A stretch of DNA of 64,000 bases. Origin: an uncultured Planctomycetia bacterium. GTDB taxonomy: Bacteria > Omnitrophota > Gorgyraeia > Tantalellales > Tantalellaceae. The DNA lies in assembly GCA_964565425.1 (NCBI GenBank), contig CAZMEZ010000004.1, positions 24,907 to 88,906 of the forward strand, given 5' to 3'. A program made the translations under genes and the position numbers. Every line of letters begins with the position of its first letter. Position 1 is the first letter of the stretch. Positions 15,076 to 36,199 of the stretch are shown piece after piece. The notes below the pieces were generated by a model. The model saw only the letters and a program-made list of their open reading frames with translations. It did not search any database and had not been told where the DNA came from.

Positions 15076-15104
15076 TTGACAGTATCTTATGTATTTACTA
15101 TAAT
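15076..15104 (+). promoter_or_regulatory. consensus sigma-70 promoter (TTGACA-17 nt-TATAAT)
   Basis: Perfect -35 (15076-15081) and -10 (15099-15104) hexamers with a 17-nt spacer. The -10 ends 8 nt before ATG 15113 and no SD is present. Confidence 0.65.
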
Positions 15105-15478: not shown

Positions 15479-16380
15479 ACATGAAGGTATTTATTTCAAC
15501 GACGACTTTCGCGGAATACAGCAAAGAACCGCTTGAGCTCCTGCGTAAAAAGGGCATGGATTTCCGCATGAACCCGCACGGGAGAAAGCTCAACGAAGCG
15601 GAAATAGGCGATATCCTCGCCCGGCATGGATATGACGGCCTGATCGCCGGCACGGAGCCTTTGACCCGGAAAGTATTGGAAGGGGCCGGATCGCTTAAGG
15701 TCATATCCCGGGTCGGGGTGGGAACGGATAATGTGGATCTGGAAACGGCCGGGGAACTCGGGATAAAGGTCCTCAATACCCCTTCCGTCCTGGTCGATTC
15801 CGTGGCTGAACTCACCATAGGCATGATCATGTGCTGTCTGCGCAGGATCGTATCGGCGGACAGGAACGTGCGGAATAAAGCATGGAAGAAGGAGATGGGC
15901 GTGCTTTTCCGCGGCAAGACACTGGGGATCATAGGTCTGGGGAAGATAGGGAAAAGGGTCGCCCAGCTCGCGAAGGCGTTCGGGGCGAATGTTATCTTCT
16001 ATGACATCAAAAAGCTAAAAACAAGCCGGTACCGGCAGGTCAGCATGGAAAGGCTTCTGGCGGAGTCCGATATCATATCGGTCAACTCGTCCTCAAAGGA
16101 CGTCCTGATAACGGAAAAGGAAATATCAAGGATGAAAGACGGCGTGATCATCACGAACACTTCAAGGGGGTCGGCCGTTGACGAGGAAGGCCTCTATGAG
16201 GCCTTAAAAACAGGTAAGATATCGATGGCCGCGCTGGATGTTTTCAATGACGAGCCGTATCACGGCAAACTCGCCGAACTGGATAACGTGGTCATGACGC
16301 CGCACGTGGGTTCGTACGCCAGGGAGGCGCGGGTCATGATGGAGCTCGAAGCCGTGGAGAACCTGATAAGGGAATTATGA
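15475..16380 (+). CDS. D-isomer-specific 2-hydroxyacid dehydrogenase (phosphoglycerate/glycerate dehydrogenase-like)
   Basis: NAD fold GIIGLGKIGKRVA and a C-terminal TPHVGS motif. Confidence 0.8.
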   Translation: MNMKVFISTTTFAEYSKEPLELLRKKGMDFRMNPHGRKLNEAEIGDILARHGYDGLIAGTEPLTRKVLEGAGSLKVISRVGVGTDNVDLETAGELGIKVLNTPSVLVDSVAELTIGMIMCCLRRIVSADRNVRNKAWKKEMGVLFRGKTLGIIGLGKIGKRVAQLAKAFGANVIFYDIKKLKTSRYRQVSMERLLAESDIISVNSSSKDVLITEKEISRMKDGVIITNTSRGSAVDEEGLYEALKTGKISMAALDVFNDEPYHGKLAELDNVVMTPHVGSYAREARVMMELEAVENLIREL

Positions 16381-17054
16381 AGAAGGACGACGGGATGAAA
16401 ACGAATAGCGGAAAGGTCTGTTTCCTTTCTCACGTGATGAGCGAGGGCACATCGCTTTACGGAGGCGATAGATCTATCAGCCTGAGGCGGGAAAGGTCCA
16501 TCCCGCGGGGGGACCATTGCAATACGATGCGCTGGTCTTTCCCCAACCATTCCGGGACCCACGTTGACGCGCCGCTGCATTTCATGGAAACGGGGGCTGC
16601 CGTTCCCGATTTCGGGCCCGGGGACTGGGTGTTCGTCAAAGTTTTCCTGGCCGAGGTATCCGACGCGGAACCCGGCCGGATGATCGGGCGGGAAGACCTC
16701 AAAGCGCTTGCGGATTGCGAGATACTGCTCATAAGGACGGGATTTGAAAAATACCGTTCAGGGAATATTTACTGGCAGGAATCTCCGGGGCTGCGTCCGG
16801 ATCTGGCCGGGCATCTCAAACGGAGCTGTCCGTCTATAAGGGCCGTGGGAATGGATTTTATATCCGTATCAAGCCTTAAGGACCGGGAGACGGGAAGACG
16901 CGCCCACAGGTCTTTCCTGGAGAACGGCATACTGCTTATAGAGGACATGAAGCTTTCGCCGCTTGTCAAAGCGCCGAAAAAGATAGTGGTAGCGCCTCTT
17001 CTGGTCGAAGGCGCGGACGGATCTCCCTGCACGGTGTTCGCTATGGAGGAGTGA
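16377..17054 (+). CDS. putative cyclase / arylformamidase-family hydrolase
   Basis: HSGTHVDAPLHF metal-binding motif. Confidence 0.6.
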   Translation: MKKDDGMKTNSGKVCFLSHVMSEGTSLYGGDRSISLRRERSIPRGDHCNTMRWSFPNHSGTHVDAPLHFMETGAAVPDFGPGDWVFVKVFLAEVSDAEPGRMIGREDLKALADCEILLIRTGFEKYRSGNIYWQESPGLRPDLAGHLKRSCPSIRAVGMDFISVSSLKDRETGRRAHRSFLENGILLIEDMKLSPLVKAPKKIVVAPLLVEGADGSPCTVFAMEE

Positions 17055-17060
17055 AGGGGA

Positions 17061-17714
17061 ATGATGCCAAACACGGATAAATATCGTTATTTCTTTTTCG
17101 ACTTCGACGGGGTCATCGTGGACAGCCTCGGCATAAAAGCGGAGGCGTTCGGCAGCCTTTTCGAGGAGTACGGGCGGGAGGTGGTCGATAAGGTGATCGA
17201 TTACCACCTGACGAACGGCGGCGTATCGCGATACGAAAAGTTCAAATATTATTATACAAACCTGATACACGAGGAGATAACCCCTGAAATAATGGGTGAA
17301 CTGGACAGGCTCTATTCCTCGAAGGTAGTGGAAAAGGTCGTCGCGGCCGCCGAGATAGACGGTGTTGTGGATTTCATACGGCGGCGGAACGACGAAGGGA
17401 AACTGTGTTTCGTGGTTTCAGCCACGCCCCAGGAAGAGATAAGGAGGATAACCCGGCTAAAGGGCATAGACCGGATCTTCAAGGAGGTCGTCGGATCGCC
17501 GAGGAAGAAAAGCGAGAATCTGGGATATATATTGGAGAAGTATTCGATAGAGCGGGGCGAAGCCGTTTTTTTCGGCGACGCGAAGAGTGACTATGAAGCG
17601 GCGCTTGAGAACGGCGTGGATTTTATCGGTGTAGTTGACGAAAAGAACAGGGAATTGGCGCTGATCGACGGAATAACCAGGATAAGGGATTTCCGGCACT
17701 TCGGGGCGCAATAG
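17061..17714 (+). CDS. HAD-superfamily hydrolase/phosphatase
   Basis: Motif I FFFDFDGVIVDS and C-terminal FFGDAKSD. Confidence 0.7.
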   Translation: MMPNTDKYRYFFFDFDGVIVDSLGIKAEAFGSLFEEYGREVVDKVIDYHLTNGGVSRYEKFKYYYTNLIHEEITPEIMGELDRLYSSKVVEKVVAAAEIDGVVDFIRRRNDEGKLCFVVSATPQEEIRRITRLKGIDRIFKEVVGSPRKKSENLGYILEKYSIERGEAVFFGDAKSDYEAALENGVDFIGVVDEKNRELALIDGITRIRDFRHFGAQ

Positions 17715-17742
17715 GGATAAAGCATTTAAGGAGGAACACGAG

Positions 17743-18723
17743 ATGCTAAACGGCAGCACAGTACTTGTCACGGGAGGAACGGGTTCTTTCGGCAGGAAAT
17801 TCACGGAGATGGTCTTCGAAAGATACAAGCCGAAAAAACTCATCATATTCAGCAGGGACGAGTTCAAGCAGCACGAGATGTCCAAGACGTTCCCTCCCCA
17901 CGAATACCCCGTACGGTATTTTCTGGGGGATATCCGCGATAAGACCAGGCTTTACAGGGCTTTCGAAGGGGTAGATTACGTAATTCACGCCGCGGCGCTG
18001 AAACAGGTGCCGGCGCTCGAATATAACCCTATCGAAGCGGTAAGGACGAACGTCGCCGGCGCGGACAATATAGTGGACGCGGCCATCGATGTCGGCGTCA
18101 AAAAGGTCGTGGCGCTTTCCACCGATAAGGCCGTGAGCCCCATAAACCTGTACGGGGCGACAAAGCTCGTGGCGGAGAAGATATTCGTCGCGGCCAACGC
18201 TTACGGAGGGGAAAAAACCAAGTTTTCCGTAGTCAGGTACGGGAACGTGGTAGGTTCAAGAGGAAGCGTGATACCTTTTTATCTCGATCTCAAAAAGAAA
18301 GGCATAAATGAATTTCCGGTCACCGATAAAAAGATGACCCGTTTCTGGATAACGCTGGAGGAAGGCGTCGATCTGGTGCTAAAGGCGCTTGAAGAATCCG
18401 TCGGGGGCGAGGTCTTTATCCCGAAGATACCTTCGATGAAGATCGTTGACCTCGCCAGGGCGATAGACCCGGAGTGCGGGATAAAGGTAATAGGCATAAG
18501 ACCCGGGGAAAAGATGCACGAAACGCTTGTATCCGAGGACGAAGCCAGGAACGTCAGGGTATTCGACGGGTTATACGTAATGCTCCCGCAGTTCTTCGAA
18601 AAGGCGGAAGCCCATGAAAAGTACGATTCTTGTCCGCTGGTGCCGGAAGGATTTGTTTACAGGAGCGATAAGAACGACCGGTGGCTTCACGTGGACCAGC
18701 TCCATGAAATGATAAGGATGTGA
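17743..18723 (+). CDS. pseB: UDP-N-acetylglucosamine 4,6-dehydratase (inverting)
   Basis: VLVTGGTGSFGRKF, the YGATK catalytic motif, about 326 aa, adjacent to pseC. Confidence 0.85.
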   Translation: MLNGSTVLVTGGTGSFGRKFTEMVFERYKPKKLIIFSRDEFKQHEMSKTFPPHEYPVRYFLGDIRDKTRLYRAFEGVDYVIHAAALKQVPALEYNPIEAVRTNVAGADNIVDAAIDVGVKKVVALSTDKAVSPINLYGATKLVAEKIFVAANAYGGEKTKFSVVRYGNVVGSRGSVIPFYLDLKKKGINEFPVTDKKMTRFWITLEEGVDLVLKALEESVGGEVFIPKIPSMKIVDLARAIDPECGIKVIGIRPGEKMHETLVSEDEARNVRVFDGLYVMLPQFFEKAEAHEKYDSCPLVPEGFVYRSDKNDRWLHVDQLHEMIRM

Positions 18724-18727
18724 CGTT

Positions 18728-19873
18728 ATGAGGCTTATACCGTACGGCCGGCAGCATATCGACGCGAGCGACATAAAAGAAGTGGCAAGCGCGCTCGGAT
18801 CGGACTGGATAACCCAGGGACCGAGGATAAAAGAGTTCGAGGACGCGCTTTGCGGGTATACCGGGGCCCTGTACGCGGTAGCGGTATCCAACGGGACCGC
18901 GGCGCTGCATATAGCGTGCCTTGCTGCGGGCATAACAAAGGACGACGAGGCAATAACCTCTCCCATGACCTTTGTCGCTTCGGCGAACTGCGTTCTTTAT
19001 TGCGGAGGAAAACCGGTATTTGCCGACGTAAAGGAAAACACGGCGAATATCGATCCGGACCAGATAAAGAAAAAGATCACCGGTAGAACAAAAGCGATCA
19101 TACCGGTGCATTTTGCCGGACATCCCTGTGACATTGAGGAGATAAAAGGGATCGCCGACAAGCACGGTCTCATGATAATAGAGGACGCGGCGCACGCGTT
19201 AGGCGCGGAATACGGTGGCGGCAAAGTGGGATCATGCGAGCATTCCGACATGGCGATATTCAGTTTCCATCCGGTTAAGTCGATAACCACGGGCGAAGGA
19301 GGGGCGGTCCTTACCAACCGGAAGGACCTTTATGAAAAGCTTTTGATGCTGAGAGCCCACGGGATAACAAAGGATAACGGGCGGATGTCCTCCGGCGAGG
19401 GGGCCTGGTATTACGAGCAGCAGCAGCTGGGGTTCAACTACCGTATAACGGATTTCCAGTGCGTGCTCGGCCTGAACCAGCTTAAGAAACTCGAAGAGTT
19501 CGTATCCCGCAGAAGGGAGATAGCCGGCATCTATGCCCGCGGGCTGTCACGGGAAAGCGCTCTCATGCTGCCCGGCGAGGAAGGGCCCGTAAGATCGGCG
19601 TGGCATATTTACTGCGTACGCGTTAAGGACGCCGCAAAAAGAAAGCCCTTGTTCGATCATTTGAGGAAAGCGGGCATAATTCCCCAGGTCCATTATATCC
19701 CGGTGTATTTTCATCCATATTACAAAGGGCTCGGTTACGAAAAAGGCATCTGTCCTAGGGCCGAGGATTTTTACGCGCGGGAAATAAGCATACCCCTTTA
19801 CCCGGCGATGACGGATGAAGACGCGGCATATGTAATAAAGATGATCTCCAAATTCTGCGGGGAGGGAAGATGA
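18728..19873 (+). CDS. pseC: UDP-4-amino-4,6-dideoxy-N-acetyl-beta-L-altrosamine transaminase (DegT family)
   Basis: IPYGRQHIDASDIKEVASALGSDWITQGPRIKEFE start and PLP lysine context FSFHPVKSITTGEGG. Confidence 0.8.
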   Translation: MRLIPYGRQHIDASDIKEVASALGSDWITQGPRIKEFEDALCGYTGALYAVAVSNGTAALHIACLAAGITKDDEAITSPMTFVASANCVLYCGGKPVFADVKENTANIDPDQIKKKITGRTKAIIPVHFAGHPCDIEEIKGIADKHGLMIIEDAAHALGAEYGGGKVGSCEHSDMAIFSFHPVKSITTGEGGAVLTNRKDLYEKLLMLRAHGITKDNGRMSSGEGAWYYEQQQLGFNYRITDFQCVLGLNQLKKLEEFVSRRREIAGIYARGLSRESALMLPGEEGPVRSAWHIYCVRVKDAAKRKPLFDHLRKAGIIPQVHYIPVYFHPYYKGLGYEKGICPRAEDFYAREISIPLYPAMTDEDAAYVIKMISKFCGEGR

Positions 19874-20613
19874 AGGTCGGGGCGATAATACAGGCGAGAA
19901 CGACTTCGACCAGGCTTCCTCGAAAGGTGCTGAAGGAGTTGCCGCGCGGCAGCGGTATCACGGTCCTGGAACAGGTGATAAGAAGGCTAAAGAGGGCAAA
20001 GAAGCTGGATGCGATAGTAGTCGCCACCACTACGGACCGGGAAGACGACCCCATCGTCGCGATCGCGGAAAAAGAAAAAGTGGACGTTTTCCGCGGCAGC
20101 AGGGACGACGTCCTGTCCCGGTATTATCTGGCGGCGAAGGAGAACGGCCTGGACGCGGTGGTGAGAGTGACGAGCGATTGTCCGTGCATCGATCCGGCCG
20201 TATTGGATATCGTGACCGAAGCGCACGTCAGGCACGGGGTGGATTACACCTCGAACACCTTGACGAGGACATATCCGCGCGGTCTTGACGTGGAAGCGAT
20301 AAGTTTCAGCGCTCTTGAGACGGCGCACGAGAAGGCGGAGCTGAAATCGGACAGGGAACACGTTACCTCTTACATATACAGGACGCGTCCGGATTTTTTC
20401 AGCAAGAGACAGATAACGGCGCCGGAAGGGGATGACGCCTCCGCTATCAGGGCGACTTTGGACACGGAGGAAGATTACGGGCTCCTCTCCGCCGTGTTCG
20501 ATCACCTGTATCCCGAAAATGAATTTTTCGGAGTCAATGAGCTCGTGCGCTTTTTCGATAACAATCCGTGGGCAAAAAAGATAAACGAAAAAATAAACCA
20601 AAAGAAGATATGA
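19870..20613 (+). CDS. SpsF/FlmC-like cytidylyltransferase-family protein
   Basis: MKVGAIIQARTTSTRLPRKVL N-terminus. The ATGA overlaps the pseC stop. Confidence 0.6.
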   Translation: MKVGAIIQARTTSTRLPRKVLKELPRGSGITVLEQVIRRLKRAKKLDAIVVATTTDREDDPIVAIAEKEKVDVFRGSRDDVLSRYYLAAKENGLDAVVRVTSDCPCIDPAVLDIVTEAHVRHGVDYTSNTLTRTYPRGLDVEAISFSALETAHEKAELKSDREHVTSYIYRTRPDFFSKRQITAPEGDDASAIRATLDTEEDYGLLSAVFDHLYPENEFFGVNELVRFFDNNPWAKKINEKINQKKI

Positions 20614-20629
20614 CGGGCAAGGGCGTATC

Positions 20630-21253
20630 GTGAATAAGAGGGTCTCTATAATAGATTACGGGATGGGAAACCTGAAGTCCATAGCGAACGCGCTTACCGC
20701 CGTCGGGGCGGACGTAAAGGTGGCGGTATCCCCGAATGATCTTGGAGCGGCAGCCCGCATCGTGCTTCCGGGAGTTGGGGCTTTCGGCGACGGGATGAGC
20801 AGCCTTAAAGAACGCGGTTGGATGGAGGCACTGAACGAAGAGGTCATGATAAAGAAAAAAACTTTTCTCGGCGTTTGTCTCGGGATGCAGCTCCTGGCGT
20901 CGGCAAGTACGGAGCACGGGGAGCATGAAGGATTCGGGTGGATATCCGGCAGGGTGGACAAGATAAGTTCGGCCGGCGTACGAGTTCCCCATATAGGGTG
21001 GAATGACGTCAGGCTGGTCAAGAGAGAAGGGCTTTACTCGGGGATAGACGATCCACAGGCATTCTATTTCGTTCATAGTTATGTGTTCCGTCCGGATGAT
21101 CCCTCCGTTGTCAGCGGGGTATGTTCCTACGGAACGGATTTTGCGGCCAGCATAGAAAAAGAGAACATATATGCCACGCAGTTTCACCCGGAAAAAAGCC
21201 ATAAGAAGGGGCTGGCGGTATTGAAGAACTTCCTGGAGGCGCGGGGATGCTGA
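20630..21253 (+). CDS. hisH: glutamine amidotransferase, HisH paralogue (WbuY-type, glycan amidation)
   Basis: IIDYGMGNLKSIANAL, nucleophile elbow GVCLGMQLL, and C-terminal FHPEKS. Confidence 0.85.
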   Translation: MNKRVSIIDYGMGNLKSIANALTAVGADVKVAVSPNDLGAAARIVLPGVGAFGDGMSSLKERGWMEALNEEVMIKKKTFLGVCLGMQLLASASTEHGEHEGFGWISGRVDKISSAGVRVPHIGWNDVRLVKREGLYSGIDDPQAFYFVHSYVFRPDDPSVVSGVCSYGTDFAASIEKENIYATQFHPEKSHKKGLAVLKNFLEARGC

Positions 21254-22035
21254 AGAAAAGACTTATACCGGTATTGCTCCTGCAGAACGGCCTGTTGGTA
21301 AGGAGCGAGCTTTTCAAGATACACCAGATAATCGGGAACCCGATACACGAGGTGCAGAGGTTCAACGAATGGAACGTGGATGAACTGGTATATCTGGATA
21401 TCACTAAAGACGACAACTATGATCTAAGGAGAAGCGACGGCAAGGTGAAAGGCCTGGGCGACCCTTTAAGCATTCTCGACGCGGTGAGCGATACCTGTTT
21501 TATGCCGCTCACGTGGGGAGGGCGCATCCGCAGGGTCGAGGACATGAGAACGTTCATCAGCCACGGCGCGGATAAAGTGACGATCAATACGGCGGCCGTG
21601 AAGACCCCCGGTCTTATCACGCGGGGAGCCAGGACTTTCGGCAGCCAGGCGATAGTCGTCAGTATAGATGTCCTGCGTCATGCTGGCGGCAAAACGGAGG
21701 TATTCATAGAAGGCGGACGGACTCCAACGGGCAAGAGACCCGAGGGATGGGCCAAGGAAGCGGAAGACCGTGGCGCGGGAGAGATACTCCTGCAGTCGAT
21801 CGACCGTGACGGCACGGGAGAAGGTTATGATCTCGAGCTTATCGAGGCGGTATCTTCGGCCGTTACCATACCCGTGATCGCGTGTAGCGGGGTCGGGGTT
21901 TACGAACATTACCCGCAGGCCGTCAAGGCGGGAGCGTCAGCCGTAGCGGCCGCGAACATATGGCATTTTAAGGAATTGTCCGATAAGGGGGGCAAACGCG
22001 CCCTGGCGCGCGCCCAGGTCGAAATACGCACTTAA
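21247..22035 (+). CDS. hisF: cyclase-subunit HisF paralogue (WbuZ-type)
   Basis: KRLIPVLLLQNGLLVRS start and a (beta/alpha)8 HisF-like sequence. It overlaps the hisH paralogue. Confidence 0.85.
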   Translation: MLKKRLIPVLLLQNGLLVRSELFKIHQIIGNPIHEVQRFNEWNVDELVYLDITKDDNYDLRRSDGKVKGLGDPLSILDAVSDTCFMPLTWGGRIRRVEDMRTFISHGADKVTINTAAVKTPGLITRGARTFGSQAIVVSIDVLRHAGGKTEVFIEGGRTPTGKRPEGWAKEAEDRGAGEILLQSIDRDGTGEGYDLELIEAVSSAVTIPVIACSGVGVYEHYPQAVKAGASAVAAANIWHFKELSDKGGKRALARAQVEIRT

Positions 22036-22049
22036 CATAGGAGAAGTAT

Positions 22050-23249
22050 ATGTCGGTCCGGTATTGCAGCAAATGTGTCTATCCGGCTATAGCGGCTACG
22101 CCGCTCACTTTCGACGACGACGGCGTGTGTTCCGGATGCCGGGTTTCCGGTCAAAAGGACACCATCGACTGGGAAAAAAGAGGCAGGATGCTGAAGGATC
22201 TGGCGGACGGGTACAAGACGGGAAGTAACTATGATATCGTCATACCCGTCAGCGGCGGCAAGGACAGTTATTTCCAGGCCCATTATGCGGTGAAAGAACT
22301 GGGCCTTAAACCTCTTCTCGTGACCTATCACGGGAACAATTATCTCCCGGAAGGAGAGTACAACCTTTTCAGGATGAGGGAGGTCTTTGACTGTGACCAC
22401 ATAATTGTGAGGCCGAGTGTTGAAACGCTGGTCAAGATGAACCGCATAGGGTTCAAGCTCCAGGGCGACATGAACTGGCACGCGCATTGTGGCATATTCA
22501 CCGTGCCTATACAGATCGCCGTTAGATACAAAGTGCCGCTGATGATGTGGGGGGAGCACGGGTTCATGGACCTGGGGGGGATGTATTCGCACAATGATTT
22601 CGTGGAGTTCACGGCGAAATTCCGGCTTGAACACGCGCTGAGAGGATACGACTGGTACGATTTTACGGACGAAGGCCTTGAAAAACTGGGCAGGCCCGAG
22701 ATCAAGGAGGGGCTGACCGCGCGGGACCTTTTGTGGGCGCGGTACCCGGGCGACGACGAGATAGACGAGGTAGGGGTGCGCGGTATATACCTCGGTAACT
22801 ACGCGCATTGGGACGCGAACCGCCATTCCCGCATGGTAATGGAAAAATACGGTTGGAAACCGGCACAGAGAGAGTTCGAACGCACCTACAGGAAGATATC
22901 CAACCTTGACGACATGCACGAGAACGGTATCCACGATTATCTCAAATTCGTGAAATTCGGGTATGGCCGGGGCACCGACCATTCGTGCAAGGATATCCGC
23001 GCGGGCATAATGACGCGCGGGCAGGCCGTAGAAATGGTCAGGAAATACGATCACGTCAAGCCCAGGTTCGATCTGGACAGGTGGCTGAAATATGTGGACA
23101 TGACCGAAGAGGAATTCGACCATATCTGCGACACTTTCAGGGACGGACGTGTGTGGCGACAGGAAAAGGGACAATGGGTAAAAGATAACGTCTGGGGGGA
23201 ACCGTCCGCGTACGGACCGGTACACGCGACGGGTTCTTTGGTGAAATGA
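22050..23249 (+). CDS. N-acetyl sugar amidotransferase (PP-loop; WbuX/PseA-like)
   Basis: N-terminal Zn ribbon CSKC...CSGC and the PP-loop IPVSGGKDS. Confidence 0.85.
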   Translation: MSVRYCSKCVYPAIAATPLTFDDDGVCSGCRVSGQKDTIDWEKRGRMLKDLADGYKTGSNYDIVIPVSGGKDSYFQAHYAVKELGLKPLLVTYHGNNYLPEGEYNLFRMREVFDCDHIIVRPSVETLVKMNRIGFKLQGDMNWHAHCGIFTVPIQIAVRYKVPLMMWGEHGFMDLGGMYSHNDFVEFTAKFRLEHALRGYDWYDFTDEGLEKLGRPEIKEGLTARDLLWARYPGDDEIDEVGVRGIYLGNYAHWDANRHSRMVMEKYGWKPAQREFERTYRKISNLDDMHENGIHDYLKFVKFGYGRGTDHSCKDIRAGIMTRGQAVEMVRKYDHVKPRFDLDRWLKYVDMTEEEFDHICDTFRDGRVWRQEKGQWVKDNVWGEPSAYGPVHATGSLVK

Positions 23250-23273
23250 CCATATTAATAAAGGCCGAAAAGT

Positions 23274-24431
23274 ATGGATAAAACACGCAAGTTGTACGAG
23301 AAGGCCAGGAAATTGATGCCGGAGAGAAACAGGTTCCTTTCCGAAGAACCGGAGCTGCGTTTCCCGGACATCTGGCCCGTTTATTACAAAGGGGCCAGGG
23401 GGTGCGAGATAAGGGATCTCGACGACAGGCGATATGTCGATATGAGCTGCATGAACACGGGTTCATGTATCCTGGGGTACTCGGACGAGGATGTCGACGG
23501 CGCCGTGAAGGCCGTTATAGAAAAGGGATCGATGTCGACGCTTAATTGCCCCGAAGAAGTGGAGCTTGCCGAGCTTTTGTGTGGAATACATCCATGGGCC
23601 GACAGGGTCGTTTTCACCGGCGTCGAGAAAGAAGCCGCGCGCATGGCGGCCGACGCGGCAAGGGTAAAGACTGGCAGGGACACCGTCCTTTTCTGCGGTC
23701 GCCGGGACAAAGGTCCCTCCTTCGCGTATAACGATATCGAAGGTTTTCTTGAGGCGGCCGACAAGAACAAAGACAGGATAGCCGCGGTGGTGATGGAACC
23801 CGCGCGGGACCGCATGCCCGTAAAGAATTTCCTCGAGATCATAAGGGAAAGAACGCAGAAAGAGGGTACGGTCCTTATTTTCGACGAGACAGTGTCCGGG
23901 TGGCGTCTTAACCTGGGCGGGGCCCACATGGGGTTCGGCGTAAAACCCGACATGGCGATATTCTCAAAAAGCACGGGTAACGGTTATTCTGTTTCGGCGG
24001 TAATAGGAACCACGGAAGCGATGGACGGTTTTGGGGGAGCCGCTTGTCCGCCGGAAAGGATAGGGGCCGCGGCCGCGATAACGGCCATAAGAAAGATGCG
24101 AAAACATAACGTCGCGGCGCACCTGGTGGAAGCCGGAAAAACGGTCAGGGAGGGATGGAGGAAGGCGGCGGAGAGACAGGGGCTGAAAATAGAGGTAAGG
24201 GGTATTCCGCCTTTAAGCTGGTTTTCATTCTGCTATGACGGCCCCCTTGCGCCGGAATCTCTTTTTGCCCAGTTCATGCTTAAAGAGGGGTTTCTGGCCG
24301 TTAACATGTTCTGCGCTTCGTACGCGCACAAGAAAGAGGACGTGGAAAAGTATTTAAAGGCTTCGGAAGGGTCTTTCGGGGCCATAGCGAGGGCAATAGA
24401 GGAAGGGAACCCGGCTAAATACATGAAGTAG
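23274..24431 (+). CDS. class-III aminotransferase (glutamate-1-semialdehyde aminomutase-like)
   Basis: 385 aa with a class-III fold pattern. FDETVSGWR and IFSKSTGNGY form the PLP-Lys context. Confidence 0.65.
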   Translation: MDKTRKLYEKARKLMPERNRFLSEEPELRFPDIWPVYYKGARGCEIRDLDDRRYVDMSCMNTGSCILGYSDEDVDGAVKAVIEKGSMSTLNCPEEVELAELLCGIHPWADRVVFTGVEKEAARMAADAARVKTGRDTVLFCGRRDKGPSFAYNDIEGFLEAADKNKDRIAAVVMEPARDRMPVKNFLEIIRERTQKEGTVLIFDETVSGWRLNLGGAHMGFGVKPDMAIFSKSTGNGYSVSAVIGTTEAMDGFGGAACPPERIGAAAAITAIRKMRKHNVAAHLVEAGKTVREGWRKAAERQGLKIEVRGIPPLSWFSFCYDGPLAPESLFAQFMLKEGFLAVNMFCASYAHKKEDVEKYLKASEGSFGAIARAIEEGNPAKYMK

Positions 24432-24484
24432 GCGGGGTCCACTGCAGGACAAGGGAGCCGCTGAAGCCGCGGGAAAGAGGCGAT

Positions 24485-25243
24485 ATGCGCGCAGTGAAAA
24501 TAATTTTTCTTGGGACCAACGGATGGTACACGACTGAGACGGGGAATACCACGTGTGTTTTCATGGAAACGAAGGATAACTATATAGTCCTCGACGCGGG
24601 GAACGGCATTTACCGGCTTGACGAGTATGTGAAGAGCGTCGATAAACCGATCTACGTTTTCCTGAGCCATTTCCACCTGGACCATATAAGCGGGCTTCAC
24701 ATCCTGGCCAAGTTCAGATTTCCCCAGGGCATGACCATATGCGGGCACAGGGGAACAAGGGAGATCCTTGATGGTATCATGCGGCAACCGTTCACGGTCC
24801 CGCTCGAAGATATTCCTTTCAAGATCGAGGTAAAGGAAATCGAAGAAGGGGTCGCCTCGGCCTTTCCGTTCCACGTTGAGGCGCGAGAGGTCCCGCATTC
24901 CTCGATGTGCCTGGCCTACAGGTTCGAAGTAGAGGGCAGGATAGTGACGTATTGCACCGACGCGGGGTATTGCCGGGCGGCGGTAGAGTTGGCCCGGGAC
25001 TCGAACGTGCTCATAGCCGAGTGCACGTTGAAGCCCGGCGAGAAGAACGAGAAATGGCCGCATCTTAATCCCGCGGACTCCGCGAGGATCGCGCAAGAAG
25101 CGGGAGCGGAGAAACTCGTGCTCATGCATTTTGACGCCGACAATTACCGGAGCATTTATGACAGGGAAAAAGCCCAGGCCGTGGCGGAGAAGGTTTTTAA
25201 GAACACAACGGCTGCCAGGGACGGAATGGTGGTGGAGCTGTAG
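24485..25243 (+). CDS. MBL-fold metallo-hydrolase
   Basis: SHFHLDH motif and a downstream His/Asp pattern. Confidence 0.75.
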   Translation: MRAVKIIFLGTNGWYTTETGNTTCVFMETKDNYIVLDAGNGIYRLDEYVKSVDKPIYVFLSHFHLDHISGLHILAKFRFPQGMTICGHRGTREILDGIMRQPFTVPLEDIPFKIEVKEIEEGVASAFPFHVEAREVPHSSMCLAYRFEVEGRIVTYCTDAGYCRAAVELARDSNVLIAECTLKPGEKNEKWPHLNPADSARIAQEAGAEKLVLMHFDADNYRSIYDREKAQAVAEKVFKNTTAARDGMVVEL

Positions 25244-25586
25244 AGAGATCGCATAGCGCAAAGCGCATAGCGGTTCGCGATGTGCGGTTAGCGGGTCGAG
25301 AAAGTAAATAATAAGTGATACGTGATACGCAGGCTAGAGGCACGAGGCTAGAGGCACGAGGCTAGAGGCAAGAGGCAAGAGGCAAGAGGCGAAAGAAAGG
25401 CGTTGATTACGAAGATTAAGACGCAGACGATGATCTTAGATTACGAAGATCTGATCCCCGTAATCTATTTAAATCTTCGTAATCAAATTATATAGTACGC
25501 GTTATCTGTGATCATCTGTTTTAAATCTGTGCTCATCCGTGTTTTAAGGAAAAACGAACGACGAACGGCGAACAACGGACGACGAT
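25241..25586 (+). repeat. mosaic spacer A: heptamer arrays, a core element of about 100 bp, and a CGAACGA array
   Basis: The order is cgcatag words, gtgatac words, then a 14-mer/7-mer tandem at 25332-25389 (GAGG every 7 nt, 8 times). The core follows at 25389-25487, including a perfect 12-bp hairpin (gattacgaagat 25439-25450 / atcttcgtaatc 25473-25484). The spacer ends with gaacgac gaacggc gaacaac ggacgac. Confidence 0.9.
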
Positions 25587-27050
25587 ATGAAAAATAACAT
25601 GCGGGTTTATATAGTTACCGAAGGGGGCGAGGGTATCGGTTACGGACACGTAACGAGGTGCCTCTCGCTTTGCCAGGCTTTTGAAGGGGAGGGCATCTCT
25701 CCGATATTCATAATAAACGGGGATAAAAGCATTAAGAATATCATCGGCGGAAGGGACTGCGTGACGTTCAACTGGCTTAAAGAGGGGGAAAAGCTGCTGA
25801 AGATCATCGATGGTTCGGATATAACGATAATAGATTCCTATAAAGCGAGCCGCGCCATCTACGCGAAAATATCGGAACTGGCGCTTTTACCGGTCTTTCT
25901 GGACGATTACAAGAGAATAGACTATCCGGAAGGGGTCGTGCTGAACGGAGGCATCCACGCCGAAAGCCTTGCGTACCCCAGGAAAAGGGGGAAGACATAT
26001 CTTCTCGGCGCGAAATACGCTCTTTTGAGAAAAGACTACTGGAAGACCTCCGGCAAGAAGATCAGGAAGAGCGTTGAAAAGATACTCGTTACGTTCGGGG
26101 GGAGCGATACGGATAACTTTACCGCCGAGGTTCTTAAAGCGCTGGACGAGGCGTATCCGGAGATATCAAGAACGGCGGTTATAGGAAAGGCGTCCGGTAC
26201 GTCGCCCGTGGCAGGAAGGGCCGCGGGAGGCGGTACGCGGTTCGTTTTTGACGCGGATGCCGCGGAGATGAAGAAGGTCATGATGGAGGCCGATATCGCT
26301 GTCGCCGCCGCCGGACAAACCACATATGAACTTGCGGCGGTAGGTGTGCCCACGGTCGCGGTCTGCGTTGCCCCGAACCAGAAAATGAACCTTGTGAACT
26401 GGATGGAAAAAGGGTTTCGCGGCTGCGCGCTTGCCGGTCGCAGGATCCCGAAGGAGAAGGTCCTCGAAGGCGTGGAGTATTTTCTGCCTTACAAGAATAG
26501 AAGCGAATTTTATAAGAGCACCAGAGATCTTGTTTCCGCCGACGGGGCGCGCAACGCCGTAAAAGAACTGCTTGGCGCGTACGGTTCCGTTAAATTGAGA
26601 GGGGTCAAAAGGGACGATTGCCGTGATCTCTGGATATGGCGAAACCATCCCAGGGCGAGAAAATGGAGTTTTTGCCATGACGCGATAAGTTATCCCGACC
26701 ACGAAAAGTGGTTCGCCAAAAAGCTCGGGGATAGAAGGGCGCGGATATATATCGCTGAAGACATCCGCGGCCGAAAGATCGGGCAGGCGCGTTTTGAGGT
26801 GTTTCCCTCGAGCGCGATGATCAGCGTGAACCTGAACCCCATGTTCTACGGCAGGGGGTTCGGTTCAAAGGTAATAGAGGGCGCGACCCGGACCTTTCTC
26901 GAAGAAAGGCCGCAGGTAAAAGAGATAACGGCCGAGGTAAACGCGGCGAACATAGCGTCGATCAAGGCCTTTAAAAGAGCCGGATACGAGTTCTCGTCAA
27001 AGGAGCGGAAAGCCGGCGAGAACGCCGATATCTTCAAGTACAGGACCTAA
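25587..27050 (+). CDS. pseG: PseG-PseH fusion: UDP-2,4-diacetamido-2,4,6-trideoxy-beta-L-altropyranose hydrolase fused to a GNAT N-acetyltransferase
   Basis: N-terminal MRVYIVTEGGEGIGYGHVTRCLSLCQAF (PseG type) and a GT-B-like core. From about aa 335 (nt about 26589) a GNAT domain begins (RGRKIGQ...GRGFGSKVIE). Confidence 0.7.
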   Translation: MKNNMRVYIVTEGGEGIGYGHVTRCLSLCQAFEGEGISPIFIINGDKSIKNIIGGRDCVTFNWLKEGEKLLKIIDGSDITIIDSYKASRAIYAKISELALLPVFLDDYKRIDYPEGVVLNGGIHAESLAYPRKRGKTYLLGAKYALLRKDYWKTSGKKIRKSVEKILVTFGGSDTDNFTAEVLKALDEAYPEISRTAVIGKASGTSPVAGRAAGGGTRFVFDADAAEMKKVMMEADIAVAAAGQTTYELAAVGVPTVAVCVAPNQKMNLVNWMEKGFRGCALAGRRIPKEKVLEGVEYFLPYKNRSEFYKSTRDLVSADGARNAVKELLGAYGSVKLRGVKRDDCRDLWIWRNHPRARKWSFCHDAISYPDHEKWFAKKLGDRRARIYIAEDIRGRKIGQARFEVFPSSAMISVNLNPMFYGRGFGSKVIEGATRTFLEERPQVKEITAEVNAANIASIKAFKRAGYEFSSKERKAGENADIFKYRT

Positions 27051-27051
27051 A

Positions 27052-28077
27052 ATGGCGAAGAAGAAAAGATCCAACAGGTGTTTGATGGTAGCGGAGGTGT
27101 CAGCCAACCACGGCCGGAACTTAAGGCAGGCTGTGGCCATGATAAGGAAGGCGAAGGAATGCGGCGCCGACGCGGTAAAGTTCCAGACGTACACTCCGGA
27201 TACGCTTACGATCGATTCGGACAGGAGTTTCTTCAGGGTCAAACACCCCAAATGGAAGGGGCAGACGCTTTACCAGCTTTACGGGAAGGCATATACGCCC
27301 TGGGAATGGTTCGCGAAACTCAAAAAAACGGCGGATTCCGAAGGTATCATGTTCTTCTCGACCGCTTTTGACAGGACGTCGGTCGATCTTCTCGAGAAGC
27401 TCAATGTGCCCGTTCATAAAATAGCTTCGTTCGAGCTTGTCGACCTGCCGCTCATCGAGTACGCGGCAAAGACCGGTAAACCCCTGATCATGTCCACGGG
27501 CATGGCGACGAAGGCGGAGATAAAAGAAGCCGTGGATGTCGCGAGAAAGGCCGGGGCTAAGGATATAACGCTTTTAAAATGCGTGTCGAGTTATCCGGCG
27601 GAACCGCGCGAAATGAATCTCCTGACCCTGCGGGATATGAAGGAGAGTTTCGGCTGCCCGGTCGGCCTTTCGGACCACAGCATGGGGATAGGCGCATCGA
27701 TAGCCGCGGTTGCCCTGGGGGCGACCGTGATAGAGAAGCATTTTACCTTATCAAGGAAGATAAGGACGCCGGACAGCTTCTTCTCGATCGAGCCGGATGA
27801 GCTGGAAAGGCTCATCGTGAACGCGAGAATAGCGGAGAAGGCCGTGGGGAAGGTCCGTTACGGCCTTACCGGGGACGAAAAGAAGAGCAAGGCGTTCAGG
27901 CGGTCGCTTTTCGCGGTCAAGGATATAAAGAAAGGAGAAGTTCTCAACGCCGAGAACGTGAGGTCCGTGAGGCCCGCGAACGGCCTGAGCCCCAAATACG
28001 CGGACGCGGTTTACGGCAAAAAGGCGAAAAAAGGCATCAAAAAAGGCACCCCGCTGGGGTGGGAGCATATATCGTGA
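27052..28077 (+). CDS. pseI: pseudaminic acid synthase (NeuB family)
   Basis: MVAEVSANHGRNLRQAVAMIRKAKECGADAVKFQTY, GLSDHS, and a C-terminal SAF domain. Confidence 0.85.
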   Translation: MAKKKRSNRCLMVAEVSANHGRNLRQAVAMIRKAKECGADAVKFQTYTPDTLTIDSDRSFFRVKHPKWKGQTLYQLYGKAYTPWEWFAKLKKTADSEGIMFFSTAFDRTSVDLLEKLNVPVHKIASFELVDLPLIEYAAKTGKPLIMSTGMATKAEIKEAVDVARKAGAKDITLLKCVSSYPAEPREMNLLTLRDMKESFGCPVGLSDHSMGIGASIAAVALGATVIEKHFTLSRKIRTPDSFFSIEPDELERLIVNARIAEKAVGKVRYGLTGDEKKSKAFRRSLFAVKDIKKGEVLNAENVRSVRPANGLSPKYADAVYGKKAKKGIKKGTPLGWEHIS

Positions 28078-28817
28078 AGGAACTCATCAGAAATTGCCAG
28101 CATTACGGGTCCCATCATACCTTTCTTTTGAGGGGGCGGGACGGTAACGTGGTCGGGGTCGAGAAAAAGACCTTCAGCGAGACCGGGATCCGGGACCTGG
28201 ACCGTGAGGCGGAAGGACTGGAATGGTACTGCCGCCTGATCGGCAGGGACGCGTCCGAGATGATCGGTTCTTTCGAAAAGGCCGCCGGGTACGGACGGCT
28301 GGAAATAAAATACCACGACGGCGCGGTTATAACGACGCCCGCCAGTCCCGATCTTGTCAAAGGAAAGCTGAGGGCGGCGGTCGAGCATTATCTCGAGGTA
28401 TTCGGCAGGGACTCTTTCAGGTTCTCGCACGGTGATTATTTTCTCGGGAACATAGTCTACACGGGCGACAGGGTCGCCTGGGTGATAGATTGGGAACACT
28501 TCAACGACAAGCTTCCCGCGGGATATGACGCGCTGAATTGCGTAACCCAGGTATTTCTTTCCGCGCACGGGAAGAAAAGGCGGTATTCGAGGGAAAGCGT
28601 TGAATCGGCCCGCGCTCTTATCGCGAAAATATCCGAAAGAGCGGCTTTGCCGGAAGAGGCGATCTCCTCCCCGGCGCTCTGGTGCAGGAACACGGCTGCC
28701 GAACGCAGTGATGTCTGGGGAGGCCAGCACGGCAAACTTCCTCATCTTGATTATCCGCGCGAGACCTGCGCGGAGGTGGACAGGATAATAGGGGTCATGA
28801 ACGGAGGCGGGATATGA
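28074..28817 (+). CDS. APH/choline-kinase-fold phosphotransferase
   Basis: Brenner-type motif FSHGDYFLGNIVY followed by VIDWEHF. The GTGA overlaps the pseI stop. The track ORF starts at 28059. Confidence 0.5.
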   Translation: MKELIRNCQHYGSHHTFLLRGRDGNVVGVEKKTFSETGIRDLDREAEGLEWYCRLIGRDASEMIGSFEKAAGYGRLEIKYHDGAVITTPASPDLVKGKLRAAVEHYLEVFGRDSFRFSHGDYFLGNIVYTGDRVAWVIDWEHFNDKLPAGYDALNCVTQVFLSAHGKKRRYSRESVESARALIAKISERAALPEEAISSPALWCRNTAAERSDVWGGQHGKLPHLDYPRETCAEVDRIIGVMNGGGI

Positions 28818-29500
28818 AAAAAGAGATAGTAGCGCTCATACCGGTCAAGGGTTCGTCGGAACGGGTGAAAGCCAAGAACACGAGACCCTTCCACGACACC
28901 AGCCTGTATGAACTGAAGCTCAGGCATATGAAGGAAGTCGGGGGATTCGCGAACGTCATAGTGTCTTCCGAGAGCAAGGATATACTCAGGGCGGCGAAAA
29001 AGACGGGATTTGACACCCACCTCCGTGATCCTAAATATTCCACGAGCACGGTCCCCATGAGCGACGTCTATTCATATATCGCCTCCGAGATAAAGGGGGA
29101 GCATATCGCGTGGGTCAACGTTACTAACCCGCTGGCGGGGCCGGAAGTATATGAAAAAGCCATAGAAAAATATAATTCCATGGGCCCCGGGCATGACTGT
29201 CTTTTGAGCGTTTCGGAGATGAAAGAATACCTTTTCCATGACGGCAGGCCTGTCAATTTCCGTCCCAACCCGTGGCCGAGATCCCAGGACCTCCAGGACG
29301 TGTATGCCATGTCCTTCATAATAAACATCCTCAGGAGAGAGGACATGGTCAGGTGGGGTTCGTGCGTCGGCGAGAAGCCGTATTTCTTCTGCCTGGACAG
29401 GGTTACCTCGAAGGACGTGGATTTTCAGGAGGATTTCGATTTTTGCGAGACGATCTATAAGAAGCGCTGTGAAGCCGTGAAACAGGAGAGTTGCAGGTGA
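28814..29500 (+). CDS. pseF: acylneuraminate/pseudaminate cytidylyltransferase
   Basis: IVALIPVKGSSERVKAKNTRPF N-terminal CMP-NeuAc-synthetase motif. The ATGA overlaps the upstream gene. Confidence 0.75.
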   Translation: MKKEIVALIPVKGSSERVKAKNTRPFHDTSLYELKLRHMKEVGGFANVIVSSESKDILRAAKKTGFDTHLRDPKYSTSTVPMSDVYSYIASEIKGEHIAWVNVTNPLAGPEVYEKAIEKYNSMGPGHDCLLSVSEMKEYLFHDGRPVNFRPNPWPRSQDLQDVYAMSFIINILRREDMVRWGSCVGEKPYFFCLDRVTSKDVDFQEDFDFCETIYKKRCEAVKQESCR

Positions 29501-30996
29501 CGGAAATTTTGAATTTCTCACATGACCGTAACGCGCCCTTCGAGCGGTCCGCTGCCGAGCTGAGGGACACTATAGACGCCTTCGCCGTCCGTCCGGAGTT
29601 GAACGGGTTGTATGACCATTTCGAACGTGATTATTCGTTGCCGCGCGACGTGGTGAGGCAGCAGATAAGGAAATATCTTGAAAAGGCGTATGATTATAAG
29701 ACATGCCGGTTTTCGGAGGATCTCTCCACGCGAAAGATCGCCTATATGGCGCTTAGACACATAGCATATCTACTGTACGTGGTTTTCACGTCGAGAAAAT
29801 ATGGAAAGCCCCCCAAGCGGTACGAACTGATATGCGAATGGGTCCTCGAGGGCGAAGAGATCGACCGGCTTTCCAGGCTCATCGGCCTTTTCGGGCGGGA
29901 GAATGTTTTGATCACTACCCCGTGCCCGGTGAATAAGCCGGGCTATAATATCGAATATCGTCCCTCCCCCTCCGCGACCCAAACCCAAAAGCAAAGTTTT
30001 TATGTCCCCAGGCTTTATGACCGGGAAGAGACGCTCAGGGCCTTTTCCCGGGAGATGCGCGAACTTAAGGTTTACGCGGACCTCTCGCGCAGGACAGGAG
30101 TGAACCTTCTGCCGGTCGCGGGCCATATAGTTAACCAGTACCTGTATTATACCTCTATATTCAAGCATAACCGGGCTAAATACTGTATACAGGAACGCCA
30201 TTACCAGACAAGCGCCATAAAGAACTTCCTGTTCCGTAAATACGGGGGCAAGTGTTCCGCGGCCACGCAGAAGAATATCCACCAGATCTCCAACTGCGGG
30301 TTTTATTATGACGCCGATGCTTTTTTCTCCCTGGGCAACAGGACCGCGGAAAGGGCTCTTGATTACGGCGCCAGGATCGGGCAGGTCGTGCCCGTAGGTT
30401 CGCTCTTCATGGAGCACGCCTGGTTCAATGGCGCGAAAGACAAGGGCCGTCCGGATAAGAGATACGATATCGTCTACCTGGGGATAAATTTCGCGAGGGC
30501 CAAAGACAACCTGGACAGCTATGCCTCTTTCGTCGACGACTATTACGAGACCTTCAGGTGGCTGGCCAGACTTTCCAGGGAAAACCCGGCCCTCAAGATA
30601 GGTATCAAGCATCACGGGAGCAACCATATCGACGAAAAAGAGACGGATATCATAAAGGGCAGCAATATCGAAACAATAGACCAGAAATTGAATTCTTACG
30701 ATATTGGTTTCAGCTCAAGATGCGCCGTGACCTATTGTTCGACGATGGGATATGAGCTTATTGCCCACGGTCTGCCGGTCCTTTTCCTGGACCCGGACAG
30801 GAGGAACGTCACGTGGTTCTCCGAGAAAAGCCTGGTGGACAATTGCCGTGTCACCACTTATAGCCAGTTTGACAGGGCGATAAAGGACCTGCTCGGGGGC
30901 AAGAACGCGCGCATGGAGACCGATGATATCTGCCTTAACAGCGCGGACGTTTCGGGAAGGATATACGAATATTTCAGGAAAGAGGTGAAGATATAA
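29491..30996 (+). CDS. hypothetical protein; C-terminal half resembles GT-B CMP/CDP-dependent transferases
   Basis: No family recognised. IKHHGSNH ... VTYCSTMGYELIAHGLPVLFLD resembles the HP / S-T motifs of TagF, KpsS and sialyltransferase-like enzymes. The start could be GTG 29497. Confidence 0.3.
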   Translation: MQVTEILNFSHDRNAPFERSAAELRDTIDAFAVRPELNGLYDHFERDYSLPRDVVRQQIRKYLEKAYDYKTCRFSEDLSTRKIAYMALRHIAYLLYVVFTSRKYGKPPKRYELICEWVLEGEEIDRLSRLIGLFGRENVLITTPCPVNKPGYNIEYRPSPSATQTQKQSFYVPRLYDREETLRAFSREMRELKVYADLSRRTGVNLLPVAGHIVNQYLYYTSIFKHNRAKYCIQERHYQTSAIKNFLFRKYGGKCSAATQKNIHQISNCGFYYDADAFFSLGNRTAERALDYGARIGQVVPVGSLFMEHAWFNGAKDKGRPDKRYDIVYLGINFARAKDNLDSYASFVDDYYETFRWLARLSRENPALKIGIKHHGSNHIDEKETDIIKGSNIETIDQKLNSYDIGFSSRCAVTYCSTMGYELIAHGLPVLFLDPDRRNVTWFSEKSLVDNCRVTTYSQFDRAIKDLLGGKNARMETDDICLNSADVSGRIYEYFRKEVKI

Positions 30997-31943: not shown

Positions 31944-31960
31944 AGGGGTATATCCGGGAC

Positions 31961-33394: not shown

Positions 33395-33412
33395 GGCCGG
33401 ATATCAAGGAGG

Positions 33413-34351: not shown

Positions 34352-34361
34352 AGGCAAAAAG

Positions 34362-36185: not shown

Positions 36186-36199
36186 GGCGGGTAAAGATC

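Follow-up and report, generated by a model that had tools for sequence, protein, structure and literature searches.

A probable long operon for a tailored, acetamidino-type pseudaminic acid in an uncultured Omnitrophota bacterium joins two conserved gene modules

Pseudaminic acid is a surface sugar of bacteria that resembles sialic acid. In Helicobacter pylori and Campylobacter jejuni, cytidine 5'-monophosphate (CMP)-pseudaminic acid is made by PseB, PseC, PseH, PseG, PseI and PseF, and these systems also include the amidotransferase PseA for Pse5Ac7Am. Here we describe a pseudaminic acid (Pse) locus at positions 17743–29500 of a 64-kb stretch of DNA, hereafter the window, from an uncultured bacterium assigned to the Omnitrophota (assembly GCA_964565425.1, contig CAZMEZ010000004.1). 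The same six functions can be recognized in the window, with PseB, PseC and PseI at equivalog level and the other three as assignments below cut-off, and a PP-loop amidotransferase of the PseA family is also present. The window differs from the H. pylori and C. jejuni systems as follows: PseH and PseG form a single protein; the PseF cut-off is reached by none of the proteins, and in place of PseF there are two distant CTP_transf_3 enzymes (CT1 and CT2); the amidotransferase has dedicated HisH and HisF paralogues; and the genes lie in an exported-glycan context with an ATP-binding cassette (ABC) transporter, with no flagellin or Maf genes nearby. We consider it probable that the genes from about 15.1 kb to at least 45.7 kb form a single long operon for the synthesis and export of a glycan that bears a tailored Pse. 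The product would most likely be an acetamidino Pse that is further tailored and exported.

The closest published gene set is the O-antigen locus of Legionella pneumophila serogroups (Sg) 6 and 12, as judged by its listed genes. The Sg6/Sg12 locus encodes a GNAT protein, PseG, a class-III 'GSA aminomutase' (GSA, glutamate-1-semialdehyde), a cytidylyltransferase, HisF, HisH, an 'LPS biosynthesis protein' (LPS, lipopolysaccharide), DegT, CapD and NeuB (PMC3694923). Both loci have an ABC exporter, but the Legionella locus contains an aldo-keto reductase (AKR) that is absent from the window, has separate GNAT and PseG genes, and lacks the metallo-β-lactamase (MBL)-fold hydrolase and the kinase found here. 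Its 'LPS biosynthesis protein' is presumably similar to the N-acetyl sugar amidotransferases (NASATs). The NASAT family is defined by a PP-loop SGGxDS and a tetracysteine motif CxxC...[GN]xCxxC (PMC10607449). The PP-loop and the tetracysteine Zn motif are shared between the window and the WbuX/Y/Z system of Escherichia coli O145, AglX/Y/Z of Methanococcus maripaludis, WbpG, and LpNASAT of L. pneumophila (PDB 8WEX). In WbuX/Y/Z-type systems a HisH glutaminase and a HisF-like barrel likewise stand alongside, and the predicted chemistry is the conversion of an N-acetyl to an acetamidino group. The substrates of these systems differ (N-acetylfucosamine, 2,3-diacetamido-2,3-dideoxymannuronic acid, legionaminic acid), and the HisF paralogue of the window falls below both the WbuZ and the AglZ cut-offs.

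Three further systems bear on the tailoring and activation steps. Tannerella forsythia ATCC 43037 makes Pse5Am7Gra, a Pse core tailored at both nitrogen positions within a non-flagellar glycan (PMC5378307). Its amidino group is on N5, no pseA or ptmG (legA) homologue was found in it, and its very divergent PseF is inactive on plain Pse5,7Ac2 (PMC5378307), a precedent for a synthetase whose substrate has to be tailored first. In Bacillus subtilis the sps genes encode the cytidylyltransferase SpsF and the PseG-like SpsG, in a pathway that yields legionaminic acid (PMC7439481). In the Pse cluster of Vibrio B9-25K2, a bifunctional gene with an SpsF-like domain and an AKR follows PseC, and the SpsF-like domain was suggested to replace NeuA (PMC7371886). 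In both of these clusters and in the window, a cytidylyltransferase gene comes right after the gene for a PseC-type aminotransferase, a likeness of gene position, and this enzyme is proposed to stand in for NeuA/PseF. Unlike the Vibrio enzyme, CT1 of the window is not fused to an AKR.

We assigned genes with NCBIfam hidden Markov models judged against their curated cut-offs, supplemented by Pfam, motif reading and PDB sequence searches. Every open reading frame named in a first-pass annotation of the locus was found on the + strand where that annotation had placed it, and PseB, PseC, PseI, HisH and NASAT scored above their NCBIfam cut-offs (Table 1). The set matched the Pse models rather than those for legionaminic acid (Leg) or neuraminic acid (Neu). 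PseB reached just 60 bits with the LegB model and carries the signature of short-chain dehydrogenases/reductases (SDRs), STDKA...YGATK (TDK plus YxxxK). PseC scored 248.7 bits with the LegC model, under its cut-off of 420, and PseI scored 316.5 bits with the NeuB model, under its cut-off of 399.65. Because the equivalog cut-offs are passed by PseB, PseC and PseI, and scores with the LegB, LegC and NeuB models are much lower, a Pse-type rather than a Leg- or Neu-type set is supported. A paralogue search of the window found no NeuB-type synthase besides PseI. E-values of 1e-140 to 1e-150 for three of the enzymes, together with the tight spacing of the genes, exclude chance.

PseG and PseH are encoded as one protein of 487 aa. 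Its PseG part matched TIGR03590 over the full length of the model (aa 5–268) with 143.8 bits against a cut-off of 153.55, contains the motif GYGH at aa 18–21, and is matched over aa 7–277 by the C. jejuni PseG structure (PDB 3HBM, E 0.0023). The GNAT part scored 48.4 bits with the PseH model TIGR03585 (cut-off 93.1), with aa 339–482 covering positions 5–152 of the 156 in the model, and the MJ1062 GNAT structure in PDB matched aa 328–479. The Pfam GNAT domain (Acetyltransf_3) spans aa 336–467, in agreement with a start near aa 335 given in the first-pass annotation. That annotation had listed all six Pse functions as recognizable: PseB, PseC and PseI stand above their cut-offs, and PseG, PseH and PseF are best-match assignments below them. 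It had also singled out the fusion as a feature of the locus, but the PseG-GNAT fusion is a common architecture with a standard NCBI product name, and is not new. Our search returned 223 relatives; among the 120 listed, more than 50 were about 460–517 aa long, covered at least 94% of the query and had a GNAT domain. The nearest named relatives, at about 47% identity, are from Omnitrophota, which also dominate the relatives of a GT-B-fold protein encoded downstream (unk501) and the best genome matches of the aminotransferase homologue AT3 described below. These relatives make an uncultivated, Omnitrophota-like source probable.

Between CT1 and AT3 lie the genes for HisH, a HisF paralogue and the NASAT, and the motifs of these proteins bear out the earlier call of a HisH/HisF/PP-loop trio as a genuine NASAT set. 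HisH has the Cys-His-Glu triad of class-I glutamine amidotransferases (motifs GVCLGMQ and FHPEKS). The NASAT has the PP-loop SGGKDS at aa 68 and the tetracysteine motif CSKC...GVCSGC (CxxC...GxCxxC) at aa 6–30, and matches the LpNASAT structure at E 1.4e-34. The HisF paralogue, best matched by WbuZ, also scored below cut-off with AglZ (222.4 bits, cut-off 310) and HisF (220.8 bits, cut-off 294.55). When aligned with a reference HisF sequence, 10 of 11 NASAT-linked HisF paralogues had Leu or Gln at the position of HisF Asp11, Leu in the window copy, while Asp130 was kept. This pattern is in keeping with a partner role rather than with that of a true cyclase. In two close relatives on JGI metagenome contigs (loci L002 and L003; PseC about 90% identical to that of the window), the same position holds another NASAT paralogue, 34% identical and with both motifs, and no HisH or HisF is found beside it. 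The amidino genes thus behave as an exchangeable cassette. The Omnitrophota relative L001 has two NASAT and two HisF paralogues with one HisH (13040–17628), so that both N-acetyl groups might be amidinated there.

By homology, PseB would convert UDP-GlcNAc into a 4-keto-6-deoxy L-sugar and PseC would aminate it at C4. The GNAT domain of the fusion would then N-acylate the C4 amine (the PseH step), the PseG domain would remove UDP, and PseI would combine the hexose with phosphoenolpyruvate (PEP) to give Pse5Ac7Ac. CMP activation would follow, by CT1 or CT2. The NASAT, with ATP, is predicted to activate an N-acetyl carbonyl as PP-loop enzymes do, and ammonia from glutamine, delivered through the HisH/WbuZ-like pair, would complete the acetamidino group. 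In Campylobacter, amidination appears to take place on the CMP-sugar (PMC5378307), and by analogy the same is probable here, with the choice of N5 or N7 not fixed by sequence. An acetamidino Pse, as the first-pass annotation proposed, is the best reading of the product; the N7 position in its Pse5Ac7Am formula did not stand, as sequence cannot give it and the T. forsythia group is on N5. Methylation, phosphorylation and possibly phosphonate addition may tailor the sugar further, and transfer by unk501 or unk580 and export by the MsbA/HepA-type ABC transporter can be envisaged.

The two cytidylyltransferases are both Pfam CTP_transf_3 members and both fail PseF equivalog membership in NCBIfam; the shared family keeps the function plausible for either. 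CT1 gave weak KdsB-type NCBIfam matches only, over its N-terminal half, and no PseF match at E <= 1e-5. Its closest structure is PDB 6OEW, described as a 'cytidylyltransferase' (135.8 bits), for which we found no citing paper. CT2 matched NeuA proteins in PDB with 28–35 bits. The sequences suggest that the CMP-sugar is formed by one of these two enzymes and do not decide which. The first-pass annotation was right that two such genes are present, but its choice of CT2 as the main Pse synthetase and CT1 as a second enzyme finds no support in that form: neither reaches the PseF cut-off, and synteny puts CT1 with the Pse genes and CT2 in another conserved module.

The first module was delineated by scanning an AT3 alignment against one genome per species, which yielded 80 loci in diverse bacteria and archaea. 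Counts were taken from the 45 loci in which AT3 is flanked by 8 kb or more in both directions. Homologues scoring at least 300 bits were found for PseB in 31 and for PseC in 28 of these, a NeuB/PseI-type synthase in 36 and PseG in 27. CT1-type cytidylyltransferases occurred in 36, and in 32 a cytidylyltransferase gene directly adjoined AT3; an AKR was found within 2.5 kb of AT3 in 22. The typical order is PseB, PseC, AKR, CT1, AT3, PseG (with or without GNAT) and PseI. CT1 thus co-travels with PseB, PseC, PseG, PseI and AT3 across many phyla, and the AKR/CT1/AT3 triad is found in Pse-type clusters that include those of archaea and gut Lachnospiraceae (L004–L083, L117/L118). Fusions of AKR with CT1 (L009, L010, L012, L048), of GNAT with AT3 (P0185) and of PseG with GNAT (the window) tie the parts of the cassette together. 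A literature search found no published function for the AT3 or the AKR of the triad. Compared with the typical cassette, that of the window lacks the AKR, has an AT3 without its lid loop, and has gained the MBL hydrolase and the amidino trio. No Aldo_ket_red Pfam match was obtained on any cluster protein scanned.

AT3 itself is a shortened class-III aminotransferase homologue whose best NCBIfam score was 189 bits against a cut-off of 486. Compared with its normal 436-aa family, 33 aa (YHGW...GVP) are deleted and the last 12 aa are gone. When a full-length relative is aligned with Synechococcus GSA aminomutase (GSAM), the Tyr-His-Gly and the lid loop of the active site of GSAM fall at the deleted residues. 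VEKEA replaces TGGEA at the site that binds the phosphate of pyridoxal 5'-phosphate (PLP). The Schiff-base Lys (FSK) and the FDE motif are retained. With the stacking Tyr, the phosphate binder and the lid loop gone, AT3 does not have the full PLP site of GSAM and class-III enzymes, and may be a non-catalytic or re-purposed subunit. The same short form, 82% identical, was found in L002 (2361–3518) and L003 (2691–3848). The ratio of nonsynonymous to synonymous substitution rates (dN/dS) was 0.21 for AT3 and 0.13–0.18 for neighbour genes. This ratio and the recurrence of the form indicate that AT3 is under purifying selection and is no assembly artefact. A decaying pseudogene was rejected in view of the same ratio and the presence of the short form in three independent assemblies. 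The MBL hydrolase follows AT3 only in the window, L002 and L003.

CT2 was found in a different neighbourhood. Scanning metagenomes with CT2 yielded 33 loci; an unk501 homologue follows CT2 in at least 20 of them, and a methyltransferase usually comes next. In many of them unk580, a HAD phosphatase, an SDR and a 2-hydroxyacid dehydrogenase precede CT2, with phosphonate genes a few kb off. CT2 thus co-travels with the GT-B-fold protein, a methyltransferase, the HAD phosphatase, dehydrogenases and phosphonate genes; CT1 and AT3 were present in none of the CT2 metagenome loci. In the window, the Pse block lies between two halves of this module, with 15475–17714 upstream of PseB and the genes from the kinase to unk580 downstream of PseI. 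Homologues of the 15475–17714 genes adjoin CT2 and unk501 in L091, L092, L098, L099, L106, L110 and L111. In L084, whose CT2 is 74% identical, the downstream order is kept and the nonulosonate cassette upstream is a different one, consisting of a PseF-like cytidylyltransferase, PseG, a NeuB-methyltransferase fusion with a better score for the NeuB than for the PseI model, a hexapeptide acetyltransferase and DegT. The presence of two cytidylyltransferases is explained by such a mosaic of two conserved modules: a Pse cassette known from many phyla would be set between the halves of a second module, which probably tailors and transfers the sugar.

Table 1 Features of the locus and its surroundings in the window (coordinates in nucleotides of the window; bits are HMM scores, with curated cut-offs in brackets).
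Feature	Coordinates	Strand	Basis
Promoter-like site, sigma-70 consensus TTGACA-17-TATAAT	15076..15104	+	sole 12/12 match in 14900-31000
Small winged-helix (MarR/HTH_24) regulator	15113..15478	+	Pfam HTH_24 E 4e-9
D-2-hydroxyacid dehydrogenase	15475..16380	+	NCBIfam, Pfam; upstream half of CT2 module
Cyclase-family protein	16377..17054	+	NCBIfam, Pfam; upstream half of CT2 module
HAD phosphatase	17061..17714	+	NCBIfam, Pfam; upstream half of CT2 module
PseB, inverting UDP-GlcNAc 4,6-dehydratase/5-epimerase	17743..18723	+	TIGR03589 496.6 bits (407.75)
PseC, PLP aminotransferase	18728..19873	+	TIGR03588 499.8 bits (423.5)
CT1, CTP_transf_3 cytidylyltransferase, KdsB-like N-terminal motif	19870..20613	+	Pfam 83.5 bits
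HisH-type glutaminase subunit	20630..21253	+	TIGR01855 242.1 bits (105.4)
WbuZ/AglZ-type HisF paralogue, putative ammonia-channel partner	21247..22035	+	best match WbuZ 248.7 bits, below cut-off (299.7)
NASAT (WbuX/PseA family)	22050..23249	+	TIGR03573 317.7 bits (203.2)
AT3, short class-III (GSA-aminomutase-like) aminotransferase homologue without lid loop	23274..24431	+	Pfam Aminotran_3
MBL-fold hydrolase (RNase Z / phosphodiesterase-like)	24485..25243	+	Pfam Lactamase_B_2 79 bits; RNase Z models 126 bits, below cut-off
Spacer, 343 bp, with tandem repeats of four different heptamers plus one 21-mer repeat	25244..25586	.	repeat-rich
PseG (aa 1 to ~330) and PseH-like GNAT (aa ~336-482) fusion, 487 aa	25587..27050	+	NCBIfam, Pfam, PDB
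PseI, pseudaminic acid synthase	27052..28077	+	TIGR03586 466.0 bits (340.25)
Small-molecule kinase, APH / eukaryotic-like kinase fold	28071..28817	+	start set by alignment to L084
CT2, NeuA/PseF-like cytidylyltransferase	28814..29500	+	sole NCBIfam match PseF 61.1 bits (205.7)
unk501, GT-B-fold protein, candidate transferase (or NeuC-like hydrolase/epimerase)	29497..30996	+	GT-B fold
S-adenosylmethionine (SAM) methyltransferase, B12-radical SAM enzyme, SDR epimerase/dehydratase, MsbA/HepA-type ABC exporter, unk580	30996..37942	+	syntenic in L084

The identity of the CMP-Pse synthetase is the point on which an alternative weighs most. That CT2 has this role, as the first-pass annotation said, and that CT1 has another job with AT3, such as the activation of a different intermediate, is a serious contender, to which we give somewhat less than an even chance. 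CT2 is the sole one of the two to match the PseF model over its full length and to match NeuA structures, it is positioned after PseI and before the GT-B protein, and CT1 is fused to an AKR in some genomes. In addition, several CT1 loci (L001, L008, L041, L043, L117) have a second, NeuA/PseF-like cytidylyltransferase at their far end, so that CT1 may not be the CMP-Pse synthetase. The case for CT2 is countered by the PseF score of CT2, far under the cut-off; by the 33 of the 45 AT3 loci that have exactly one CTP_transf_3 gene within 10 kb, nearly always of CT1 type; by the occurrence of CT2 relatives with other, non-Pse nonulosonate cassettes; and by the phenotype of the B. subtilis SpsF mutant, which fits a CMP-nonulosonate synthetase (PMC7439481).

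Several points weigh against a tailored Pse as the product. The PseG, PseH, WbuZ and both cytidylyltransferase assignments are below their NCBIfam cut-offs, so that these steps rest on best match and context. Stereochemistry is not readable from sequence, and the Pse assignment rests on homology; others have stressed the ambiguity of genomic Pse and Leg calls. As AT3, the MBL hydrolase and the kinase have no assigned function, the product may differ from described Pse derivatives. The cluster might make a 5,7-diamino nonulosonate other than Pse, another stereoisomer or one with an extra amino group, with the AKR/CT1/AT3 triad as a separate pathway branch, which we regard as unlikely. The triad, for which no published function was found, is conserved beside PseB/C/G/I-type genes in dozens of genomes, the synthase in many triad loci scored just 120–260 bits against the PseI of the window, and an oxidoreductase, an aminotransferase and a cytidylyltransferase together are reminiscent of the pathway to 8-amino-3,8-dideoxy-D-manno-octulosonic acid (Kdo8N). 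PseG-like and SpsF-like enzymes also serve the Leg pathway of B. subtilis (PMC7439481). However, PseB, PseC and PseI of the window all pass Pse-specific equivalog cut-offs, no AKR is found here, and in AT3 the Tyr that stacks on PLP, the lid loop and the motif for phosphate binding are gone. The role of the triad is probably reduced or changed in the window. The trio, for its part, could have as its target a different N-acetylated sugar within this glycan, such as a 2,3-diacetamido uronic acid, the type of substrate of WbpG and AglXYZ, although we hold this to be improbable. The family description of TIGR03573 includes several sugar substrates, the trio occurs in just 4 of the 45 AT3 loci and is thus not integral to the Pse cassette, and 52588–57444 holds a WbpB/WbpE/WbpD-like set of a GFO/MocA oxidoreductase, a DegT aminotransferase and a hexapeptide acetyltransferase. 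The NASAT family has also been found to act on several different sugars (PMC10607449). Against this, the trio lies inside the Pse block, flanked by CT1 and AT3 and some 30 kb away from the genes for the uronic acid; NASAT genes hold the same position in L002 and L003 and adjoin Pse genes in L001, L027, L029, L034, L052, L068 and L081; and Pse and Leg are well-known targets of the family (PseA, PtmG, LpNASAT). An acetamidino Pse made by this operon remains the reading that we prefer.

The first-pass annotation named its genes correctly, but missed AT3, the MBL hydrolase, the kinase, the 343-bp spacer and the 30-kb operon context. The window is nearly all coding on the + strand, and from 15113 to 45739 consecutive genes overlap by 4–7 nt or are separated by short gaps, the spacer at 25244–25586 being the sole exception. 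Within 17743–29500, most junctions are 4-nt overlaps or gaps of 1–53 nt. The sigma-70-like site (Table 1) is suggestive of an operon start, with total counts in promoter and terminator scans no better than in shuffled sequence. Homologues of the winged-helix regulator that follows it were found upstream of PseB in L001, L006, L007, L009, L010, L019 and L034. GC content is even around the locus, at 0.50–0.55, and on this ground a recent horizontal transfer visible in composition was rejected. No Rfam family matched in 14000–31500, including the spacer. Heptanucleotide tandem arrays, with a different heptamer at each site, also occur in intergenic spacers at 7212, 9830, 59533, 59710, 61506, 61970 and 62053.

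The kinase belongs to a family of about 184 representatives in which HGDxxxxN and DWE are invariant and an N-terminal Lys is conserved. The Pfam APH model matched 38 of 50 relatives, and a profile built from these 50 matched APH-type kinases in PDB. Single-sequence PDB searches of the kinase, unk501 and unk580 gave nothing useful, and a single-sequence AlphaFold2 model of the kinase had a pLDDT (predicted local distance difference test) of 39. The 580-aa protein unk580 (36200–37942), to which no family could be assigned, has an invariant K-x-H-P inside a stretch with a weak match to the Pfam polysialyltransferase model (E 0.055). As a lead only, it could be a nonulosonate transferase or polymerase. 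A relationship of unk580 to unk501 was rejected (hhalign probability 8.6%).

Directly downstream, 37943–45739 is a phosphonate block. It encodes a PEP mutase-nucleotidyltransferase fusion (TIGR02320, 303 bits, just below cut-off), a phosphonopyruvate decarboxylase (476 bits, cut-off 312), a phosphonate-type Fe-alcohol dehydrogenase, a further nucleoside triphosphate transferase and two B12-radical SAM enzymes, one of them closest to the P-methyltransferase family. The block can be likened to the early nucleotide-activated steps of fosfomycin-type pathways, and the same genes come after the CT2 module in L091, L099 and L111. The window has five B12-binding radical SAM genes in 64 kb (31961, 39663, 43510, 49756 and 51245), which suggests that sugars or phosphonates are extensively methylated at C or P. 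Besides the oxidoreductase, aminotransferase and acetyltransferase genes mentioned above, 52588–57444 carries an SDR and a GT4 glycosyltransferase and resembles the WbpB/E/D route to 2,3-diacetamido uronic acids. Upstream of the operon, 8434–14956 encodes a sigma-54-dependent response regulator, a sigma-54 factor, a PurF/AsnB-like amidotransferase and a ScyF-like protein, which scored 59 bits with the NCBIfam model 'scytonemin biosynthesis PEP-CTERM protein ScyF' (cut-off 350). The PurF/AsnB-like amidotransferase scored 798 bits against a gene that adjoins the same arrangement of winged-helix regulator and PseB in the Omnitrophota locus L010.

Nonulosonic acids shape how hosts, phages and other cells see bacterial surfaces, and little is known of the enzymes that tailor them. 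The locus contributes little to knowledge of the core pathway. It offers an example of acetamidino cassettes that are swapped between close relatives, and shows that a pair of cytidylyltransferases may reflect two conserved modules brought together. Of greater interest is the AKR-CT1-AT3 set, together with the reduced form, without the lid loop, that it takes here. Tentatively, the triad may represent an undescribed nonulosonate branch, such as one with an additional oxidation and transamination, or with epimerization of an amine on a nucleotide-linked intermediate; the window would then hold a derived form, in which AT3 is lid-less and an MBL hydrolase and a second cytidylyltransferase are present, and would make a Pse-like sugar that is as yet undescribed. 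Widespread in Pse-type clusters, the AKR/CT1/AT3 set is a sensible target for enzymology.

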